From a virus (lineage: Duplodnaviria > Heunggongvirae > Uroviricota > Caudoviricetes), in IMG/VR virus record IMGVR_UViG_3300020156_000003, positions 1-46,824 of that record: 46,824 nt of DNA. One strand, 5' to 3'. Position numbers and translations under genes: made by a program. Each line of letters opens with the position of its first letter. Positions within the stretch are counted from its first letter, which is position 1. Positions 8,492-16,114 of this stretch are shown here, piece by piece. The notes under the pieces are model-generated. The model saw nothing but the letters and a program-made list of their open reading frames with translations, was not told the DNA's origin and searched no databases.

Positions 8492-8863
8492 TTAGGATCC
8501 GCCATGAGATCCGCCAAATTTCCAGGATTCCAGAACAGGAACCGCGGCCTCCCTGGCTATCGAACACATATGCCGGGTGCCAACGCCGCCGGCGAACGCC
8601 GCGACCATGTCAGGCTTCGCTTCGCGAAGCATCCGACAGTTGCGCACGCGCCCCGCGTGGCCGCCATACCGATCCCACTCTGCCTCGAAGGTCTTGAACG
8701 AAATCCGGCGGGCTTGCGCCCATTGACGAGCGAACGTGTCCGCGCCCGAGGCGCCGCCTTCGACCAGGAGGGTGATGGTGCGCTTGGCGTGGATCGCGTC
8801 CAGGATCCGGAACACGAATGCCCGATCCTTATAGTCCCGGCCGCCCGTGACGAGAACAATCAC
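8492..8863 (-). CDS. SLOG-superfamily (DUF2493/YspA-like) protein
   Basis: VLVTGGRDY, VEGGASGAD, AGRVRNCRML, AFAGGVGT motifs. Confidence 0.8.
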   Translation of the reverse strand: MIVLVTGGRDYKDRAFVFRILDAIHAKRTITLLVEGGASGADTFARQWAQARRISFKTFEAEWDRYGGHAGRVRNCRMLREAKPDMVAAFAGGVGTRHMCSIAREAAVPVLESWKFGGSHGGS

Positions 8864-9099
8864 CAGGCGTCTCCATAGTCGTGCATGACGTGATCGCCTG
8901 GCGGCCCGTCAGGGAACACTTCCACCCACGCCCCATCTTCGACCATTTTCTCAATGCCCTCCGTGGTGTGCGGGAGGGCAAGTGGCTGGTCCATCGGATC
9001 GCCATTGCTGTGGTTCGTCTTCACGCAACGACCCGTCTCCGTGTCCAGCTCGACCAGCCAGTCGATCGACGCATACTTGGACTTGAAGTAGCGCTTCAC
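8860..9099 (-). CDS. Tandem paralogue 5 of the RYF/GxWxE family, 79 aa (GTG start)
   Basis: MKRYF...VEDGAWVEV...YGDAW; GTGA overlaps at both ends. Confidence 0.75.
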   Translation of the reverse strand: MKRYFKSKYASIDWLVELDTETGRCVKTNHSNGDPMDQPLALPHTTEGIEKMVEDGAWVEVFPDGPPGDHVMHDYGDAW

Positions 9100-9371
9100 C
9101 AGGCGTCTCCGTATTCCCAGGCCGCCGAAGCCGCGGTCACTTCCGGATAGATCGCCGTGCGCAGTTGCGGGAACAGAGCAAAAGCTTCTTCCTCCGTGAT
9201 CTCTACCCACTCCGAGTTGGAGGCGAGCAGGGCGCGAGCAGACTCGGCGTTGTTGCCGTGAAACGTCTTGATCACGTCATCTCGTTCGGCGCGCGTGACG
9301 GTGCTAGTGTGGTCGTGGCGCGTTACCCAGACATTGTGGCGCTTGTGCTTGATGTAGATCGGCTTCACCAT
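9096..9371 (-). CDS. Tandem paralogue 4, 91 aa
   Basis: MVKPIY...SEWVEI...YGDAW; SD GGAGG inside the upstream gene end. Confidence 0.75.
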   Translation of the reverse strand: MVKPIYIKHKRHNVWVTRHDHTSTVTRAERDDVIKTFHGNNAESARALLASNSEWVEITEEEAFALFPQLRTAIYPEVTAASAAWEYGDAW

Positions 9372-9613
9372 GCATCGACCTCCGATTGTGGCCTGTCCAG
9401 CAGCTCGGGCGTCAGCACGTATTGTTCCGTGACCTCGATCCAGTGACCTTTGGCGACATGATTGTGCGCATCTTGGAGGTTCCAGAACTTGCAGGCGACC
9501 AAGGTGCGTTCGGCGTCGTTTTTCACGAACCACACGCGGCCGTTCTCCTCGAACTTGAGCGCCAGGGCGTCCTTGAACTTGCCGCTCTTGTCGGTGAAGT
9601 AGCGCGCAGTCAT
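9365..9613 (-). CDS. Tandem paralogue 3, 82 aa
   Basis: MTARYF...HVAKGHWIEV...EVDAW. Confidence 0.75.
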   Translation of the reverse strand: MTARYFTDKSGKFKDALALKFEENGRVWFVKNDAERTLVACKFWNLQDAHNHVAKGHWIEVTEQYVLTPELLDRPQSEVDAW

Positions 9614-9903
9614 TACCAGTGATCCCCGTAGCAGGGCGCGGGAACGTCTGCGACGACGACGTAGCGCCTGCCATTCTCGTCAAACGCGATCTCGACCCAA
9701 TTGCCCTGTTGGACGTACCTCATGCACGCTTCGAGCGCGGGAACCCTTAGTTGATCCGTCGACTCGTAGACGGATCCGTCCTTGAGATGGGTCAGCAGCC
9801 GGCCATCATTCGTGACCTCCTTGTAGTCGGGACTGGTGGGGCGAGCGTCATCCGGCTGAAAGCGCAGCTCCGGATTGTTGTAGACGAAATAGCGGCTCAC
9901 CAT
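9613..9903 (-). CDS. Tandem paralogue 2, 96 aa
   Basis: MVSRYF...YVQQGNWVEI...YGDHW. Confidence 0.75.
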   Translation of the reverse strand: MVSRYFVYNNPELRFQPDDARPTSPDYKEVTNDGRLLTHLKDGSVYESTDQLRVPALEACMRYVQQGNWVEIAFDENGRRYVVVADVPAPCYGDHW

Positions 9904-10151
9904 ACCAGCTCCGCTGCGGTGGCTGGCGCATCGGGCATGAGCTTGCCCTCAAACAGCGTGTGCAGCTCGCCGGCCGGGATTTCGCGCCACCGACCTTTGG
10001 CGACATGCTCCATTGCGCACGCCATCGTGATGTGGTTGATAGACGGGTTTTCGCCATTACGCTTGTGAGCGACGGCACCGCGGTCGTCGATCGCCACGTA
10101 TAGCGTGCCGTCGCTGAATCCCTCCACATGGCTGAAAAAGCGTGGCCTCAT
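9897..10151 (-). CDS. Tandem paralogue 1, 84 aa
   Basis: MRPRFF...HVAKGRWREI...ELVW. Confidence 0.75.
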   Translation of the reverse strand: MRPRFFSHVEGFSDGTLYVAIDDRGAVAHKRNGENPSINHITMACAMEHVAKGRWREIPAGELHTLFEGKLMPDAPATAAELVW

Positions 10152-10432
10152 TGCTTCACCTGTTCGGCGGCCTTCAGCGCGGCTTCGAGCTGCGCCGGCG
10201 TCAGCCCCTTGAATTTCTGATACAGCGCGTTCTTCGGCTTGCGTGCCGCCACCTTGGCCTCGCGCTTGGCGACAAACAGCGGCTTGATGCCGTCGTCCTC
10301 ACCGGCGTAGTCCAGCAGGGTTTCGATGACCTCGCCCTGACTGAGCTTATATGCCTTGGCGATCGCGGCCAGTTGCTCCCGATGCGGGCCGTCGATGTCG
10401 ATGGAGTAGCGCGTGCGTTGTGTAGTTTCCAT
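10148..10432 (-). CDS. Ribbon-helix-helix-like DNA-binding protein, 94 aa
   Basis: RYSIDID strand followed by HREQLAAIAKAYKLSQGEVIETLLD helices; TATAAT upstream at 10480-10475. Confidence 0.6.
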   Translation of the reverse strand: METTQRTRYSIDIDGPHREQLAAIAKAYKLSQGEVIETLLDYAGEDDGIKPLFVAKREAKVAARKPKNALYQKFKGLTPAQLEAALKAAEQVKQ

Positions 10433-10504
10433 GATTTTGTGCCTTCGTGCGTTTGTTGAAATGCGTGCAAACTGATTATAGCGCTCGATCAAAATTGCAC
10501 GCGC

Positions 10505-10528
10505 AATAAAAAGGCGCCCGAAGGCGCC
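10505..10528 (-). terminator. Intrinsic terminator (minus strand)
   Basis: GGCGCC-TTCG-GGCGCC-TTTTTATT. Confidence 0.75.
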
Positions 10529-10554
10529 AAAGGAGACACACATGAAAACTGCCG

Positions 10555-10764
10555 CTATCGCACGTCAGCGGTGAAGCCCATCGGCGTTTCTTCGTCCTCG
10601 CCTGCTTCCTCCTGGCCGCCAAAGCCAGGCATGAACATCGGATGCGCCTGCGGTGGGGGTTGCAGAACGAGCAGGGCCAAAAGCGCGAGCGGGTTTTGCA
10701 GGACGACCATGCACACGATGACGGCGGCGATGATCAGGACGTTGACGGCGAGGGTGGGATTCAT
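10555..10764 (-). CDS. Small membrane protein, 69 aa
   Basis: Long N-terminal hydrophobic segment, acidic tail, SD AGGA. Confidence 0.6.
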   Translation of the reverse strand: MNPTLAVNVLIIAAVIVCMVVLQNPLALLALLVLQPPPQAHPMFMPGFGGQEEAGEDEETPMGFTADVR

Positions 10765-10776
10765 CTGGTCGCTTCC

Positions 10777-10798
10777 TAAGTCAGTAGTGAGGGATTCT
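10777..10798 (-). promoter_or_regulatory. Degenerate operator copy and TAGAAT -10
   Basis: TAAGTCA-gtag-TGAGGAT directly upstream of the SD of 10764. Confidence 0.4.
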
Positions 10799-10841
10799 AG
10801 GCTATCACGGCCTTATAGATTCGACCAAGAAGTTCCGGACG

Positions 10842-10870
10842 TTGCCATCGGGTAGGATCTCGCGTAACAT
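10842..10870 (+). promoter_or_regulatory. sigma70-like promoter
   Basis: TTGCCA-17-TAACAT. Confidence 0.5.
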
Positions 10871-11126
10871 GGCGAGGCCCTTTTACCAAGGGCATTACCT
10901 ACTGACGAGGAAAGAGAATGTTTGGATGGTCTGCACCCGATCTAGGCTAGGGCACGCGCAATTTGCGTGTGTCCCGAATCTAGCGTCCACGATGAGATAA
11001 GAAGACTTCACATCAGGAAGTCTTTGCTGGAACGTCTTTATCGAAAACTCTTAATTGAGTTAGGACGAGTTTTGATACTTAGGTGCGGATCGCTAAATTT
11101 TTTTTTACTTGAAGAAAGGTAAGTCG

Positions 11127-11303
11127 ATGATTTATAAGATTTTGTGTGGTTCCACCACTCTGGAAGCTTCGGATAAGTTTGAAACTAAGCTCCAAATTGA
11201 CCCCAAGGTCGTCGCCAATCACTTGAAGGCGCTATATGAGGGGGCGGGAATCGAAGTTATGGGTGTGGTGCAGATGTCAGAGTTTGAAATCGACATCCAT
11301 TAG
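11127..11303 (+). CDS. Small protein A, 58 aa (paralogue of 12339-12521)
   Basis: SD AAAGGT; about 28 of 60 identities with the paralogue by hand alignment; own terminator. Confidence 0.8.
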   Translation: MIYKILCGSTTLEASDKFETKLQIDPKVVANHLKALYEGAGIEVMGVVQMSEFEIDIH

Positions 11304-11310
11304 CGCAAGC

Positions 11311-11333
11311 AAGGGGCCAATCGGCCCCTTTTT
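11311..11333 (+). terminator. Intrinsic terminator
   Basis: AAGGGGCC-aatc-GGCCCCTT-ttt. Confidence 0.75.
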
Positions 11334-11341
11334 GTTGGCCG

Positions 11342-12079
11342 CTACTGAAGCAGTCCGAGCCGATACGCGAAGAAGGCGGTCGGATAGATGCCGGCGCGGT
11401 CGAATTGCGGCGGCAGGGTGCGCTGCATGTACTTGATCCGCGACGCCTTAATCCCCATGATGGTGGCAATCACGTCAGAAGTCTTGCCATCCAATACCCA
11501 CCGCAGATACTGGCGCTCCTGGGCGTTCAACTCGATGAAGAACTGCGGCAGGTTCTTCCGCAACAGACGCAACTCCATTGCCTCGACCACCGCCTGAATC
11601 AACGCGTGCGTCTTGTGTCTGACCTGCCAGCCGTCGTCAGGATTCCGCGACAGACCGACCATTGCCGTGGTGCCGCCCCGACCATCAATTACCTCCAGCC
11701 ATTTCAGGTGTACGCCGGCCGCGCGCGCCTCGCGCAGAAAGTCGCGGCGCGTCCAATAGTAGTCGCTGCCGCCAGCGACCGGCGCGCTGATGCGCTTGCC
11801 GTAGCAGACCTTGGAGCCGTGGTTTGTGGCTGACGGGTTCAGGAACTTTTCTTGCCAGTCGTCCCTGAAGTTACAGAAGAAGGAAAAGTGCGGCTCGGCC
11901 AAGGATGACGGGTACTCCAGCCCGTAGGCGACATAGCGATAGCCAAGCGCATTGGCAAGCGAAACGAATTTGCGAAAGACTTCGCTCTCATGTTCAACCG
12001 CCAGCTCCCGGCAGCAGTCGTCCTCCCACTGCTCCACGCTGGCTTCAAATGAATCTGTGCTGCACATACCACGCTCCAC
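11342..12079 (-). CDS. LuxR-family regulator (autoinducer-binding-type domain plus HTH), degenerate ligand pocket
   Basis: LGYRYVAYG...NFRDDWQEKF N-domain; ELNAQERQYLRWVLDGKTS...AYRLGLL C-terminal HTH. Confidence 0.8.
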   Translation of the reverse strand: MERGMCSTDSFEASVEQWEDDCCRELAVEHESEVFRKFVSLANALGYRYVAYGLEYPSSLAEPHFSFFCNFRDDWQEKFLNPSATNHGSKVCYGKRISAPVAGGSDYYWTRRDFLREARAAGVHLKWLEVIDGRGGTTAMVGLSRNPDDGWQVRHKTHALIQAVVEAMELRLLRKNLPQFFIELNAQERQYLRWVLDGKTSDVIATIMGIKASRIKYMQRTLPPQFDRAGIYPTAFFAYRLGLLQ

Positions 12080-12338
12080 GCGAACTGTCTACAGCACCTT
12101 TGTGCTTTGATCCGCGTGGCGTCTTGCTATAGAGTTCGCACCTGCTTTCATTTCTCCGATGCAACACATTCTGGCATACGTCGAATGGGAATGGCAGGGA
12201 GAAGGCGTTTAGCGCAAGGAAATACCGTTCTGGTGTGAGAAATCACCAACAAAGTTCTCTTTGATGCCGCTGTCATGGAGGTCAACTGCCTGGCAGGTCG
12301 ACCGCGGCTCCATTTTTCATCACTACAAAGGAAGGATC

Positions 12339-12521
12339 ATGATTTTCAAAGTGCTATGTGCGCAGCAAAACGGAGAGGTCAGGGCGGACAGGTTCGAGAC
12401 GCAGCATCTTCTCAGCAACCCGCGCCATATTGCCGACCGCATCCGGCAACTGTACGAAGGTTCGGATGTGGAAGTCATCGGCGTTGTGCGCGTGTCCGAA
12501 GTGGACATCGACATTCACTGA
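12339..12521 (+). CDS. Small protein A', 60 aa, divergent from the luxR-like gene
   Basis: SD AAGGAAGGA; shares MIxKxLC, DxFET, LYEG, EVxGVV and IDIH with protein A. Confidence 0.8.
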   Translation: MIFKVLCAQQNGEVRADRFETQHLLSNPRHIADRIRQLYEGSDVEVIGVVRVSEVDIDIH

Positions 12522-12528
12522 CCCTTCG

Positions 12529-12548
12529 GGGCCGGCGCTCGCCGGCCC
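12529..12548. terminator. GC hairpin between convergent genes
   Basis: GGGCCGGC-gctc-GCCGGCCC. Confidence 0.55.
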
Positions 12549-12551
12549 AAC

Positions 12552-14294
12552 TTACGCCGCCAGCGTCGCGCGCGCAAACCCCAACTGTTCCATGTCGAAG
12601 TCCCGGCCGCCTTCGTAGATGAAGCGGTCAAATCCCGGTGTACCCTTGATGATCGCCTGACGCTGCTTGGCGTGCGTGACCAAATGGTCATTGAATGCGT
12701 CGGCAAAGTCGATGATGAAGCACAGGTTTGGCATTCCATTCTTCTTTTCGCGCAGCCCGCGACCGATGCGCTGGCGCAGCGCGACCTCGGCCTTCCCGCC
12801 GCCGGCCAGAATCACGTAGCCGACCGCCGGCACGTCCACGCCCACGTCAAGAATGGTGGTGCCGATCAGGACGTCAATGTCGCCGCGCGCCAGGCGTCCC
12901 AACGCGCGCTTACGGCCCTCCTGGTCATCCTCACCCTGGATGAACTCCACCCGCAGACCGGCTTCGGCGATCGCCTTTTTCAGCTTGTCACCGTGCGCAG
13001 TCTGCTGCACCAGGATCATGCCGTTTAGGCCGTAGCGTGACATGCGCACGCATTCCTCGACGATCAGTCCGTTGCGGTAGTCGTTGTCCACGATCCCCAG
13101 GCGGTACGCGGCCTGCCAGCCAGTGCCGCGCATGAGCTTTTGCGGCTTGAACTTGAGTGGCACGAACTTGAAATGCGGCTGCGCCAGGATGCCGCGGTCG
13201 ATCAGGGTTTCCTCGCTGACCTTGATGGCGATCGGCCCCGCGCACGCCATCAGGCGCATGTTCGATTCCTCGTTCTCCTTCATGAACGGGGTGGCGGTGA
13301 GCGCCAGGCGGTAGTGCGCGTTCTTGCAGTGGCGCAGGATCTCGTAGTAGCTGTTGCCGGACGCTTCGTGCGCTTCCTCCAGGATCACCAGCCCAAACAT
13401 GGACAGCAACTGGATGGTGCGAGCGCGGTCGCGCATGTGCTCCGCGACTTTCACCGCGGCTTCCGCGCGCATCTTGCCCACTAGCGCCTTGCGTTGGGCG
13501 ACCTGGCGCGCGTCAAGCGCTTCGAGCTGGCGCTTGCGCTCGGCCGGTTTGACGCCGGCGGCCAAAAGCCGATTCTCCAGCGCCCTGTGTTCCTTCAGCT
13601 CGGCCTTGACGCGGGCGTCCGTCATTTTGTCCAGCTCGCCGTCGATCGTCTTTTCCTCCAGGCGCGAGATCAAGGTCTGCACCATGCCCACGCACATTTT
13701 CTTGACCGCTTGCCGCGTGTTCCCGTGCTCGTCAACGATGGTGTGACCGAATTGGCCGTCGCCCAGCACCGATACGGGCACCCCGAGGTCTTTCTCGAAC
13801 GCGTCTTTCATCTGGTACATCAGAATGCCGCGCGTGGTCAGAAACAGCGTGGGCATGTTGATCGAGGCGAAGGCCATGCGGGCGATGCGGCTCTTGCCGC
13901 CGCCGGTGGCAACCTGCGCGATGATCGCGCCGTGCTTGCGCAGCCGACGGATGACCTCCGGCTGGTAGTCGTAGCGACCCTCGTAGCCGAAGCTGTCGAT
14001 CACCGGCAGCTCCGGCCCCTGCGGCTCGGGCAGCGGCTTGCGCGCCAGGCGTACTTCGTAGCCCTTGTGCCGCAGCTTGGCGGCGACGAAATGCACGAAG
14101 CCGGCGGGGAAGGTGCCAAGCTTGAAATCCAGGAAGGAGCTGCGGCCATCCCAATTGCCGCGCTTGAAGGCAATAGTGTGCTCGGCGCCATCCACCGCAT
14201 ACGACAGGATGGACTGGACTTCAAGCTTCACGTCTCGCGTCGGCTCATGGAGCTTGGCGACGGTGGCGTTGGAGGCGATGGTGACGACGGTCAT
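12552..14294 (-). CDS. Superfamily 2 (DEAH-type) helicase
   Basis: ATGGGKS, LEEAHE, LTATP, TTILDVGVDVP and QRIGRGLR motifs; alternative TTG start at 14306. Confidence 0.9.
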   Translation of the reverse strand: MTVVTIASNATVAKLHEPTRDVKLEVQSILSYAVDGAEHTIAFKRGNWDGRSSFLDFKLGTFPAGFVHFVAAKLRHKGYEVRLARKPLPEPQGPELPVIDSFGYEGRYDYQPEVIRRLRKHGAIIAQVATGGGKSRIARMAFASINMPTLFLTTRGILMYQMKDAFEKDLGVPVSVLGDGQFGHTIVDEHGNTRQAVKKMCVGMVQTLISRLEEKTIDGELDKMTDARVKAELKEHRALENRLLAAGVKPAERKRQLEALDARQVAQRKALVGKMRAEAAVKVAEHMRDRARTIQLLSMFGLVILEEAHEASGNSYYEILRHCKNAHYRLALTATPFMKENEESNMRLMACAGPIAIKVSEETLIDRGILAQPHFKFVPLKFKPQKLMRGTGWQAAYRLGIVDNDYRNGLIVEECVRMSRYGLNGMILVQQTAHGDKLKKAIAEAGLRVEFIQGEDDQEGRKRALGRLARGDIDVLIGTTILDVGVDVPAVGYVILAGGGKAEVALRQRIGRGLREKKNGMPNLCFIIDFADAFNDHLVTHAKQRQAIIKGTPGFDRFIYEGGRDFDMEQLGFARATLAA

Positions 14295-14299
14295 AGGGC

Positions 14300-14354
14300 T
14301 TGCCAAGGTGTTTTCGTTGGAGTAAAGTATAAGTCACCAATGACTTAGACGCAA
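14300..14354. promoter_or_regulatory. Overlapping divergent promoters sharing one perfect operator
   Basis: Plus: TTGCCA(14300)-17-TAAAGT. Minus: TTGCGT(14354)-17-TATACT. TAAGTCA-ccaa-TGACTTA at 14330-14347. Confidence 0.8.
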
Positions 14355-14367
14355 CGATTCTATAAGT

Positions 14368-15018
14368 ATGCAAACGACACAACTGCTGGAATGCGATCCG
14401 CGCACTCTTCAGCCCAATCCCTGGAACACGAATGTCGTGAGTCCGGACAACGAGGCCAAGATCGATGAATCGATCAAGCGGCTCGGCATGTTCAAGCCGA
14501 TCGTGGTGCGCACACTGGACGATGGCGCGCTACAAATCCTGGGCGGCGCGCACCGCCGTGACTCTGCGATCCGGCTCGGCATGAAGAAGGTTCCGGTCAT
14601 CAATCTCGGCTCCATCGACGATAAGAAGGCCAAGGAGATCGGGCTGGTGGACAACGGCCGCTACGGCGCCGACGACACGCTGCAACTGGCCGAATTGCTC
14701 GACTCCCTCGGCGCACCCGAAGACCTCGCGAAGTTCATGCCGTACACCGATGCGGATTTCGCGTCGATCTTCTCAAGTGTGAATATAGCGCTCGACGATC
14801 TTGATCTGCCCGATGACGACGGCGCAGCCCCAAGCGCGCCCGCCCCCAAACCCGCGCAGACCCACGCGGTCATGCGCTTCAAAGTGCCGCTGGGCGACGA
14901 CCAGATGATTTCGGAAGCTGTCGCCAGGGTGATGAAGCAGCAAGGCTTCACCGAGGCCGACGAGCTGACCAACGCCGGCGACGCTCTCGTCCACATTTTC
15001 AAGAAGGCAGGGTACTGA
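14368..15018 (+). CDS. ParB/Srx-domain protein 1
   Basis: LQPNPWNTN...SIKRLGMFKPIVVR...ILGGAHRR. Confidence 0.85.
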   Translation: MQTTQLLECDPRTLQPNPWNTNVVSPDNEAKIDESIKRLGMFKPIVVRTLDDGALQILGGAHRRDSAIRLGMKKVPVINLGSIDDKKAKEIGLVDNGRYGADDTLQLAELLDSLGAPEDLAKFMPYTDADFASIFSSVNIALDDLDLPDDDGAAPSAPAPKPAQTHAVMRFKVPLGDDQMISEAVARVMKQQGFTEADELTNAGDALVHIFKKAGY

Positions 15019-15019
15019 C

Positions 15020-15190
15020 ATGGCACGTTGCGACGGCGGCTATCCCTTTTGCGAGGACTGCGTCCACTACGGTAATCCCACCGGCGAGTGCGACGAGTGC
15101 GAGGACGGCTCCATGTATGAGGAGGCTGACAGCGTCGAGGAGCTGTCGGTTCACGAACTCAAATTCATGATTTTGAAGGAGGCGGCATGA
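15020..15190 (+). CDS. Small Cys-rich protein, 56 aa
   Basis: CEDC...CDEC; coupled to both neighbours. Confidence 0.55.
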   Translation: MARCDGGYPFCEDCVHYGNPTGECDECEDGSMYEEADSVEELSVHELKFMILKEAA

Positions 15191-15294
15191 GTCCGGCTGT
15201 GTTTGTGACTTGGGTGCTGGCCGTCGCCTTCAGCTTCCTGATCTTTGGCACTCTTTTCGCGGGCGCCTACGTCTGCTGGAAGGACATCAAATGA
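15187..15294 (+). CDS. Small membrane peptide, 35 aa
   Basis: SD GGAGG, ATGA overlaps, one TM helix. Confidence 0.5.
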   Translation: MSPAVFVTWVLAVAFSFLIFGTLFAGAYVCWKDIK

Positions 15295-15473
15295 TCGACT
15301 GGTGGATTGTTCCGACCATCATCACGCTGCTTGGTATCGCCGGCATGGTTGGCAGCCTGTTCGGGCGTGACTGGTTCGAGGCGGGTCTGATCGGCATGGT
15401 CGGGGCCGTCATTCTCTTTTGCCTGGCGCCGATCACCTGGATCGTGTGTCTTTTGTTGAAAGTGTTCTCATGA
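15291..15473 (+). CDS. Small two-TM membrane protein, 60 aa
   Basis: SD AAGGA, ATGA overlaps, two hydrophobic segments. Confidence 0.6.
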   Translation: MIDWWIVPTIITLLGIAGMVGSLFGRDWFEAGLIGMVGAVILFCLAPITWIVCLLLKVFS

Positions 15474-16114
15474 AGATCCAGAAATGGGGCATCGAGCGCG
15501 TCATCCCCTACGAACTGAACGCGAAAATCCATGATCCCGAGCAGGTCAAGCGTATCGCCAAGTCGATCGCCGAGCTTGGATGGGATCAGCCCATCGTGGT
15601 GGACAAGAACGGCGTGATCATCAAGGGTCACGGCCGGCGCCTGGCCGCCATCTCGCTCGGTTACAAGGAAGTGCCGGTCTTGGTGCGTGACGACCTGACG
15701 CCGGATCAGGTGAAGGCCGCGCGCCTGGCGGACAACCGCGTTGCCATCGGCAACATCGACGCCGAGCTGCTTGCCAAAGACCTGGCCGATCTCGAATTCG
15801 ACCTGACCGGCATTTTCGACGCCAAGGAGCTGGAGTTCGTCACGGCCGATCTGGGCGAGCTGAACCAGGATGCCTTCGTTGCCGACCTGGACGCGGAGAT
15901 TGCCGCGCAGGCCGACGAGACGACCAACGCGATCGCCGCGGCGGCCGACAAGGCGGTGCCGATCCAGAAGGCGCTGGGCTTTAAGGCGATCAAGGGTTCC
16001 GACGAGCGCGCAGTTGCCATGTTCATGGCGCAGTTGGAGGCCGAGTCCGGATTGACCGGCGCAGAAGCCTTCATGGAATTCATTCGCGCTTTCGCTCCTG
16101 CGAGTAAGTCATGA
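15470..16114 (+). CDS. ParB N-terminal-domain protein 2
   Basis: IPYELNAKIH...SIAELGWDQPIVVD...IIKGHGRRLAA...RLADNR. Confidence 0.85.
   Translation: MKIQKWGIERVIPYELNAKIHDPEQVKRIAKSIAELGWDQPIVVDKNGVIIKGHGRRLAAISLGYKEVPVLVRDDLTPDQVKAARLADNRVAIGNIDAELLAKDLADLEFDLTGIFDAKELEFVTADLGELNQDAFVADLDAEIAAQADETTNAIAAAADKAVPIQKALGFKAIKGSDERAVAMFMAQLEAESGLTGAEAFMEFIRAFAPASKS

Follow-up and report, generated by a model that had tools for sequence, protein, structure and literature searches.

When a phage gene for a LuxR-type regulator lies between two small paralogous open reading frames (ORFs), are the three genes one signal-sensing switch between lysis and lysogeny, or does the tidy arrangement have another origin? 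This question is raised by a triad at positions 11127–12521 of the 46,824-nucleotide stretch of DNA that we analyzed (hereafter the window), which is the first 46.8 kb of the complete 110,824-bp virus record IMGVR_UViG_3300020156_000003, a genome with direct terminal repeats. An initial annotation proposed that the LuxR, encoded without a LuxI-type synthase, drives the two small ORFs as twin effectors of a lysis/lysogeny switch. Comparison of the locus with its relatives points elsewhere: we regard it as an evenly balanced proposition that the triad is a composite, in which an imported and partly decayed cassette sits between two resident small genes, rather than a module whose parts evolved together.

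The layout itself is as first described. Small ORF A (11127..11303, + strand) encodes an acidic protein of 58 amino acids (aa) with an isoelectric point (pI) of 4.9, and small ORF A′ (12339..12521, + strand) encodes one of 60 aa that is likewise acidic (pI 5.4). Aligned end to end, the two share 47% identity (E = 1e-19), and they are the only copies of their family in the 110,824-bp genome. Between them, on the minus strand, lies luxR (11342..12067, with an alternative GTG start at 12079), which encodes 241 aa and is convergent with A and divergent from A′, the latter at a distance of 271 nucleotides (nt). It is the single LuxR/GerE gene of the whole phage genome, and the LuxI family (PF00765) has zero matches in the complete 110.8 kb. 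The reported hairpins are present on both sides: a terminator-like element with a T-run (11311..11340, + strand; hairpin at 11311–11330) between the convergent A and luxR, and a GC-rich hairpin with no T-run, read from the sequence, at 12522..12550 between A′ and the convergent helicase gene. The intergenic DNA is indeed partly AT-rich, with a guanine-plus-cytosine (GC) content of 47% at 10765–11126 and 51% at 12068–12338, versus 60% for the genome.

The small ORFs belong to a family that is at home in this phage lineage. A word-index search with the A/A′ profile returned the two window proteins only, and relatives emerged only from an exhaustive HMMER search, which yielded five further members of 58–61 aa. 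Their contigs (L072, L073, L074–77, L078/79 and L097) all carry genes for a UvsW-like helicase and a ParB_N protein, and in most cases the small ORF and the helicase gene converge, with a few hundred bases to a few kilobases between them. The corresponding DEAD/ResIII helicase gene of the window (12552..14306, − strand) is the conserved anchor of the region, which the small-ORF family adjoins in all relatives. In L012 (two copies), L054, L041 and a Massilia contig, that site holds more remote members of the family (hhalign probability 90%). One further candidate, P0017 (844 aa, with nine near-identical repeats of ~95 aa; E = 2e-7), matched profile positions 6–40 only and was rejected as a repeat-driven chance match.

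The regulator has a different distribution. A six-frame scan detected neither a LuxR nor p130, a protein whose gene is the usual divergent neighbor of this type of luxR (see below), in L073, L074–77, L078/79 or L097; L072 is the sole exception. A LuxR is present in 0 of 60 IMG/VR loci of the helicase lineage, no relatives of A or A′ were detected in the seven LuxR-homologue loci that were fetched, and pattern scans of IMG/VR for A/A′ and for p130 gave no matches. LuxR and small ORF occur together only in the window and L072 and do not travel as one module. Because the small ORF is present beside the helicase in five LuxR-less relatives and undetected in loci of the LuxR clade, this comparison of gene content shows the family to be a resident accessory gene of a temperate phage lineage of ~110 kb, independent of the presence of LuxR. 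The same holds for the duplication: L012, the nearest IMG/VR relative, has two small-ORF copies split by a membrane-protein gene with no regulator between them, so two copies in this region are not tied to LuxR. The region downstream of the helicase varies among the relatives, with a membrane protein, ParA, YAcAr and other small genes.

How the three genes may have come together is suggested by L072, a 3,972-bp contig that, with a helicase 89% identical to that of the window, is the closest relative found. At its left end, on the minus strand, a luxR of the same clade is represented by its initial 36 codons (E = 9e-12 against the profile of the clade); there follow a 166-nt spacer, a divergent p130 gene (+ strand, E = 2e-37), 27 nt, small ORF P0016 and the convergent helicase gene. 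A′ is the syntenic orthologue of P0016 and, at 59% identity, is closer to it than to A (47%). A global alignment of window positions 12000–12560 with L072 positions 1–1010 is collinear, with a gap of ~400 nt at p130; the collinear parts are the 5′ end of luxR, an 18-bp dyad, a promoter block and the junction of p130 with the small ORF. At the dyad (12091–12108) the local alignment of the two scores 28 versus 15 ± 2 for shuffled sequences, and 0 of 500 shuffles reach this score. The junction (12301..12338, + strand), in which the L072 alignment places a putative remnant of the p130 3′ end and a Shine–Dalgarno sequence before A′, left after deletion of p130, scores 20 versus 13 ± 2.3. The divergent promoter of p130 appears to persist as a degenerate remnant (12140..12180, + strand) in which the −35 element reads CTGGCA and the dyad is broken; the block is intact in L072 and in the P2-like loci described below. 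No p130 gene remains in the 110,824-bp phage genome.

Because the window is collinear with L072 except for p130, we interpret the triad as an imported LuxR–p130 cassette minus p130. In the simplest history, the cassette would have entered immediately 5′ of the resident small ORF in an ancestor shared by the window phage and L072, and p130 would later have been deleted in the window phage, leaving the promoter and junction remnants that now abut A′. We also considered a recent tandem duplication of A and A′ by insertion of luxR; we reject this because A′ is closer to its L072 orthologue and the base composition of A differs (45% GC for A and 55% for A′, with the genome at 60%). A is about equidistant (33–47% identity) from the other core members of the family and is, by this measure, an old paralogue or a xenologue of A′. 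Judged by its signals it behaves as an autonomous unit, and it has the features of a moron: deviant GC content and promoter-like and terminator-like sites of its own. The promoter-like region (11044..11099, + strand), located by a consensus scan, consists of a −35 element TTGATA (11072–11077), 16 nt and a −10 element TAAATT (11094–11099); a palindrome scan added an inverted repeat, AAAACTC-N16-GAGTTTT (11044–11073), that overlaps this −35 element.

The cassette has a recognizable source. A word-index search with the window LuxR found 11 homologues of 43–59% identity, all in metagenomic assemblies; the nearest named LuxRs (Acinetobacter AbaR-like, Ralstonia, Burkholderia and Variovorax) are merely 23–27% identical, and pattern scans of IMG/VR and of GTDB genomes returned no member of the clade. 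Seven of the nine clade contigs examined are phage-like. Five of the seven contexts fetched have the gene order of a P2-like temperate phage: Toprim primase, Ogr/Delta, a small cox-like ORF, CI(S24), p130 (here 111–143 aa) convergent with cI, the divergent luxR and a serine recombinase. The block from CI(S24) through p130 and LuxR to the serine recombinase lies at L004:4775-7448, L006:4784-7382, L007:4792-7382, L009:4894-7379 and L010:741-3315. In the sixth context an HTH_3/S24-like repressor adjoins luxR, and the seventh is a chromosomal biosynthetic cluster. These comparisons of gene order show the window luxR, so far as neighborhoods can tell, to be an import from a LuxR clade encountered elsewhere next to the CI of P2-like temperate phages.

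In all six loci in which the upstream side of luxR is readable (five P2-like phages and L072), the divergent partner gene is present. The p130 proteins (~130 aa, range 111–167 aa) form one family (alignment A5) with no match in Pfam or PHROGs; the structural model has a predicted local distance difference test (pLDDT) value of 70, its best PDB match reaches Z = 3.8, and AFDB gave unnamed proteins only. The spacer between luxR and p130 contains a dyad, TGTTGA-N6-TCAACA, together with a conserved TTGACA −35 element (L004:5887-5908, L005:22-43, L010:1866-1883 and L072:193-210), and L006 and L007 carry the variant TGTTTAC...GCAACA. This dyad is a candidate operator of the LuxR clade, or else a back-to-back pair of −35 elements. 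The four-gene block in the P2-like immunity region looks like an undescribed sensory module; the literature that we searched yielded no description of a LuxR clade with p130. The novel element is this clade: it is found only in metagenomic, mostly phage-like contigs, has lost the Asp-Pro pair and the second Trp of the signal pocket, and has the partner p130 beside CI.

What might such a regulator sense? The window protein has an N-terminal autoinducer-binding domain (Autoind_bind, PF03472; 31.8 bits with a cut-off of 23; 33 bits when the genome was searched) and a C-terminal LuxR-type helix-turn-helix (HTH) domain with E178, L182 and G188 (TraR numbering), the composition of a LuxR-type receptor; GerE scores 18.9 bits, just below its cut-off of 23.5. 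It aligns over its full length with RhlR and QscR (E ~1e-14), and the HTH also aligns with SdiA and TraR. Residues E184, L188 and G194 are present in the HTH of the window LuxR, and G194 is invariant across the clade. Nine residues define the LuxR family, of which those of the pocket are W57, Y61, D70, P71, W85 and G113 in TraR numbering (PMC10134790). We mapped the pocket on an alignment to wild-type RhlR, with the numbering checked against the chain, and on the clade alignment. RhlR W68 (TraR W57) is retained as W71, and RhlR Y72 (TraR Y61) is replaced by F75, D81-P82 (TraR D70-P71) by G84-S85 and W96 (TraR W85) by G99. Of the pocket set for binding acyl-homoserine lactones (AHLs), W57 alone is retained, with G113 lacking a confident mapping. 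These alignments bear out the residue-level reading of the initial annotation, in which the HTH consensus positions and the first Trp are kept, Tyr becomes Phe, and the Asp-Pro pair and second Trp are lost.

The same pocket pattern is common to 12 of 12 clade members, which have an HHGS motif (NHGS in the window) where AHL receptors have xxDP. The altered pocket is a trait of the clade and not decay of a single copy. In the window the luxR ORF is intact, every clade-invariant residue is present and the GC content is genome-like. With no luxI in the genome and a pocket that departs from the canonical one, the protein is a genuine solo, and it probably cannot bind the usual AHL signal. Because Asp70-Pro71 and Trp85 are missing throughout the clade, its cue is predicted to be a ligand other than a classical AHL, or else the protein is ligand-independent. 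The best solved relatives, RhlR and QscR of Pseudomonas aeruginosa (PDB 7r3j/8dq0 and 3szt), align in both domains; in contrast to them, the window LuxR has every direct AHL-contact residue replaced save the first Trp. In having no synthase and a substituted six-residue pocket motif it resembles the non-AHL solos PluR, PauR and the OryR/XccR/PsoR group. In these last, plant-associated proteins W57 and Y61 are changed and Asp70 is kept. PluR (TYDQCS) and PauR (TYDQYI) retain Tyr61 and Asp70 (PMC10134790). The window clade, however, keeps W57 and has a Gly at the Asp70 position, within HHGS; as the non-AHL sensors PluR and PauR still have Asp70, this Gly lies outside the characterized sensors.

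Does the imported LuxR act on the small ORFs? The dyad at 12091..12108 (ACAGCAC-N4-GTGCTTT), conserved in L072, is a candidate LuxR (auto)operator, and its position 24–41 nt upstream of the luxR start suggests autoregulation. Between luxR and A′ lie also a 20-bp inverted repeat, CAACAAAG-TTCT-CTTTGATG (12247..12266), and an 11-bp palindrome upstream of A′ (12286–12296), neither of which has a counterpart elsewhere. No promoter-like site was found on the + strand at 12080–12338, upstream of A′, and Rfam gave only a chance microRNA match over 10500–12700. We consider LuxR control of A′ plausible from this arrangement, though with the balance tipped against it; the link is favored by the divergent partner that luxR has everywhere its upstream side is visible, by the L072 small ORF lying in that partner's operon and by the lack of a consensus promoter for A′. 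LuxR control of A is unlikely. We propose that luxR would be transcribed from a promoter of its own, that LuxR probably binds the 12091–12108 dyad and that, like its relatives, it probably controls the divergent unit, which here would be A′ only. The dose of A′ would then follow whatever LuxR senses, with A expressed independently by means of a sigma-70-type promoter and a terminator that belong to it.

A structural model of A′ bears on the role of the small proteins. A, A′ and the neighboring small genes have no match in Pfam or PHROGs. The model of A′, built from a ten-sequence alignment, is a compact beta-beta-alpha-beta fold with pLDDT 87. Its best solved match is T7 Gp2 (Z = 5.7, root-mean-square deviation 2.5 Å over 51 residues); Foldseek gives E = 0.57 and TM 0.65/0.76 for this pair, values too low to demonstrate kinship. 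Next in rank are an ACT-like repressor domain and a designed protein, with YkzG, T4 Dmd and phi29 p56 lower. The small phage inhibitors T7 Gp2 (an RNA polymerase inhibitor that binds the beta′ jaw), T4 Dmd and phi29 p56 are like the A′ model in compactness, size and acidity, but A′ has no sequence similarity to them, and the Z value cannot tell kinship from a common small fold. The ESM Atlas yielded only unnamed clusters and weak, unrelated structural matches, and a fold search of BFVD with A′ only uncharacterized small phage proteins. A complex prediction for A′ (alignment A4) with the CI-like repressor of the phage (alignment A9) scored 0.00; run without controls, it speaks neither for nor against binding. 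Because T7 Gp2, YkzG, T4 Dmd and phi29 p56 are small proteins that act by binding another protein, a role as binder or inhibitor is the most natural one, and A and A′ might tentatively be pictured as binding or inhibiting a phage or host protein in stoichiometric fashion.

Several observations weigh against this picture of an imported cassette whose LuxR now acts on its own dyad and on an A′ that binds another protein. The homology at the junction is modest, as 9 of 500 shuffles reach its score. L072 is only 4 kb long, and a second small ORF beyond its luxR may lie off the contig. The 12091–12108 dyad is the sole good copy in the genome, with none near A or A′, and no binding site common to luxR and either A′ or A was found. 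A weight matrix of the dyad/−35 block upstream of the P2-like luxR genes scores at best 2.6 in the triad, compared with 30–33 at true sites. With its inherited p130 promoter block degenerate, A′ may be silent, driven by an unrecognized promoter or independent of LuxR. Finally, the fold matches of A′ score too low for kinship to be told apart from a common small fold.

A reading that we hold to be possible but lean away from is that LuxR is a stand-alone moron regulator of host or distant phage genes, serving for example lysogenic conversion or eavesdropping, with no control of A or A′; its place between them would then reflect no more than insertion into a variable accessory region. The accessory region downstream of the helicase is variable in relatives, the window has only a degenerate p130 promoter block, and the one clear dyad immediately precedes luxR; the luxR gene, with its intact ORF, genome-like GC content and full set of clade-invariant residues, fits this reading as well. 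However, the divergent partner is kept in six of six readable loci, which points to the local divergent promoter as the main target, and collinear remnants of the divergent region persist up to A′. The composite origin favored above leaves room for a more specific scenario that we consider rather unlikely: LuxR and p130 would form an undescribed phage sensory module whose receptor, having lost the Asp-Pro pair and second Trp used by all characterized LuxR sensors, would need no ligand or respond to a novel cue; in P2-like phages it would drive p130 and so allow induction independent of SOS, and in the lineage of the window phage the module would have been captured and, after the loss of p130, rewired onto A′ as a resident small inhibitor.

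The setting of the locus in the phage genome bears on the switch originally proposed. The phage is a temperate one, with a tyrosine integrase (64786–66015), an HTH_17 Xis-like gene in the same region and a 152-aa CI-like repressor (66679–67137) that is conserved, at 49–71% identity, in related IMG/VR phages. No S24 peptidase domain was found anywhere in the 110,824-bp genome, the CI-like repressor included. The triad is ~54 kb away from this int/xis/repressor region.

Modules that pair a transcription factor with a small ORF (TF-smORF) are known from phages, among them the XRE–LuxR–smORF modules of Aeromonas phages Apop and ARM81ld (Silpe et al., Nature 2023, PMC10432266; Silpe and Bassler, mBio 2019, PMC6456758). 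A switch of this Silpe–Bassler type, in which the window LuxR would sense a cue and induce both small ORFs as antirepressors that inactivate the phage repressor and so trigger induction, we judge improbable. The likenesses are real: the window phage is temperate, its LuxR has no LuxI and a small ORF without a recognized domain is divergent from it, as in the published modules (PMC10432266); a repressor without an S24 cleavage domain makes an antirepressor route sensible; and the LuxR clade is at home in an immunity region, beside CI. The differences are more numerous. In contrast to the Aeromonas phages, which are linear and plasmid-like, the window phage integrates and has ~111 kb with direct terminal repeats; its luxR has no XRE operon partner; and the pocket of its LuxR lacks Asp70-Pro71 and Trp85, whereas the LuxRs of the Aeromonas phages bind C4-homoserine lactone. 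Its small ORF is resident in the lineage and found in LuxR-less relatives, none was detected in the seven LuxR-clade loci, and p130, the conserved partner of the clade, has been deleted. There is a second small-ORF paralogue, which is convergent with luxR and, by its predicted signals, autonomously expressed; no common operator links the genes, and the locus lies far from the int/xis/repressor region. Of the LuxR-driven lysis/lysogeny switch, then, the temperate phage, the solo LuxR and the divergent A′ stand. The twin effectors do not, given small ORFs in relatives without LuxR, an A that is convergent with its own promoter and terminator and deviant GC content, and a dyad that is unique.

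Proteins that modulate LuxR-type receptors are a last comparison. TraM and QslA are anti-activators and Aqs1 is a phage protein, and all three act on LuxR-type receptors. That A and A′ flank luxR because they modulate phage or host receptors in this way is very improbable: small acidic proteins do adjoin the LuxR gene in the window and in L072, and a review (PMC13043044) documents protein partners of LuxR-type receptors in general, but the small-ORF family is conserved in LuxR-less relatives, and neither sequence nor fold connects A and A′ with TraM, QslA or Aqs1.

The nearest relatives of the phage found among genome assemblies are a 113-kb contig of a Massilia sp., with a helicase 77% identical to that of the window, and betaproteobacterial metagenome-assembled genomes; they make a betaproteobacterium the likely host. 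The Massilia contig (L098; NZ_JBJCIU010000006.1, Massilia sp. TN1-12, 112,962 bp) has the size of a whole phage genome, comes from an isolate and is likely a clue to the host and possibly a cultivable relative.

Several neighboring features accompany the triad. Beyond the helicase, one early operon contains two ParB_N-like genes, at 14368-15018 (confirmed by Pfam) and 15419-16114 (recognized by eye, by analogy with the two ParB_N genes of L074). In relatives, the operon after ParB_N encodes Tad2-like and Acb2/Tad1-hairpin anti-defense proteins (L073:3190-3906, L074:8096-8392 and L097:7207-7488); among the ORFs of the equivalent window stretch, 15020-15700, which was not scanned with Pfam, no anti-defense gene stood out; in their place are a Cys-rich 56-aa ORF and a membrane ORF of 87 aa. 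On the other side of the triad, an array of small paralogues with R[YF]F near the N-terminus and a terminal Trp occupies window positions 8860-10543, with counterparts at L012:9006-10118 and L041:8792-9405. It is preceded by a ribbon-helix-helix-like gene of 100–131 aa, and both are kept in the closest IMG/VR relatives, which marks the array as a feature of the lineage. The same accessory region encodes a conserved membrane protein of 66–74 aa (window 10555-10764, − strand; L012:8254-8478; L041:8497-8697), and in L012 this gene sits between the two small-ORF copies, the position held by luxR in the window.

On the reading favored here, insertion and deletion explain the arrangement. A tidy layout is not by itself evidence of a module: a small ORF–regulator–small ORF order can come from insertion into a duplicated resident family. 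The window phage shows, by the history favored above, a cassette moving between unrelated phage groups and then undergoing decay or rewiring; if the rewiring of LuxR–p130 is true, it would show in nature how a regulatory module can exchange one output for another. The phage LuxR receptors that have been studied experimentally are few and are those that bind host AHLs, whereas the clade described here is without the AHL-contact residues. If this clade works as a sensor, it would widen the set of cues on which phages base their decisions between lysogeny and lysis.

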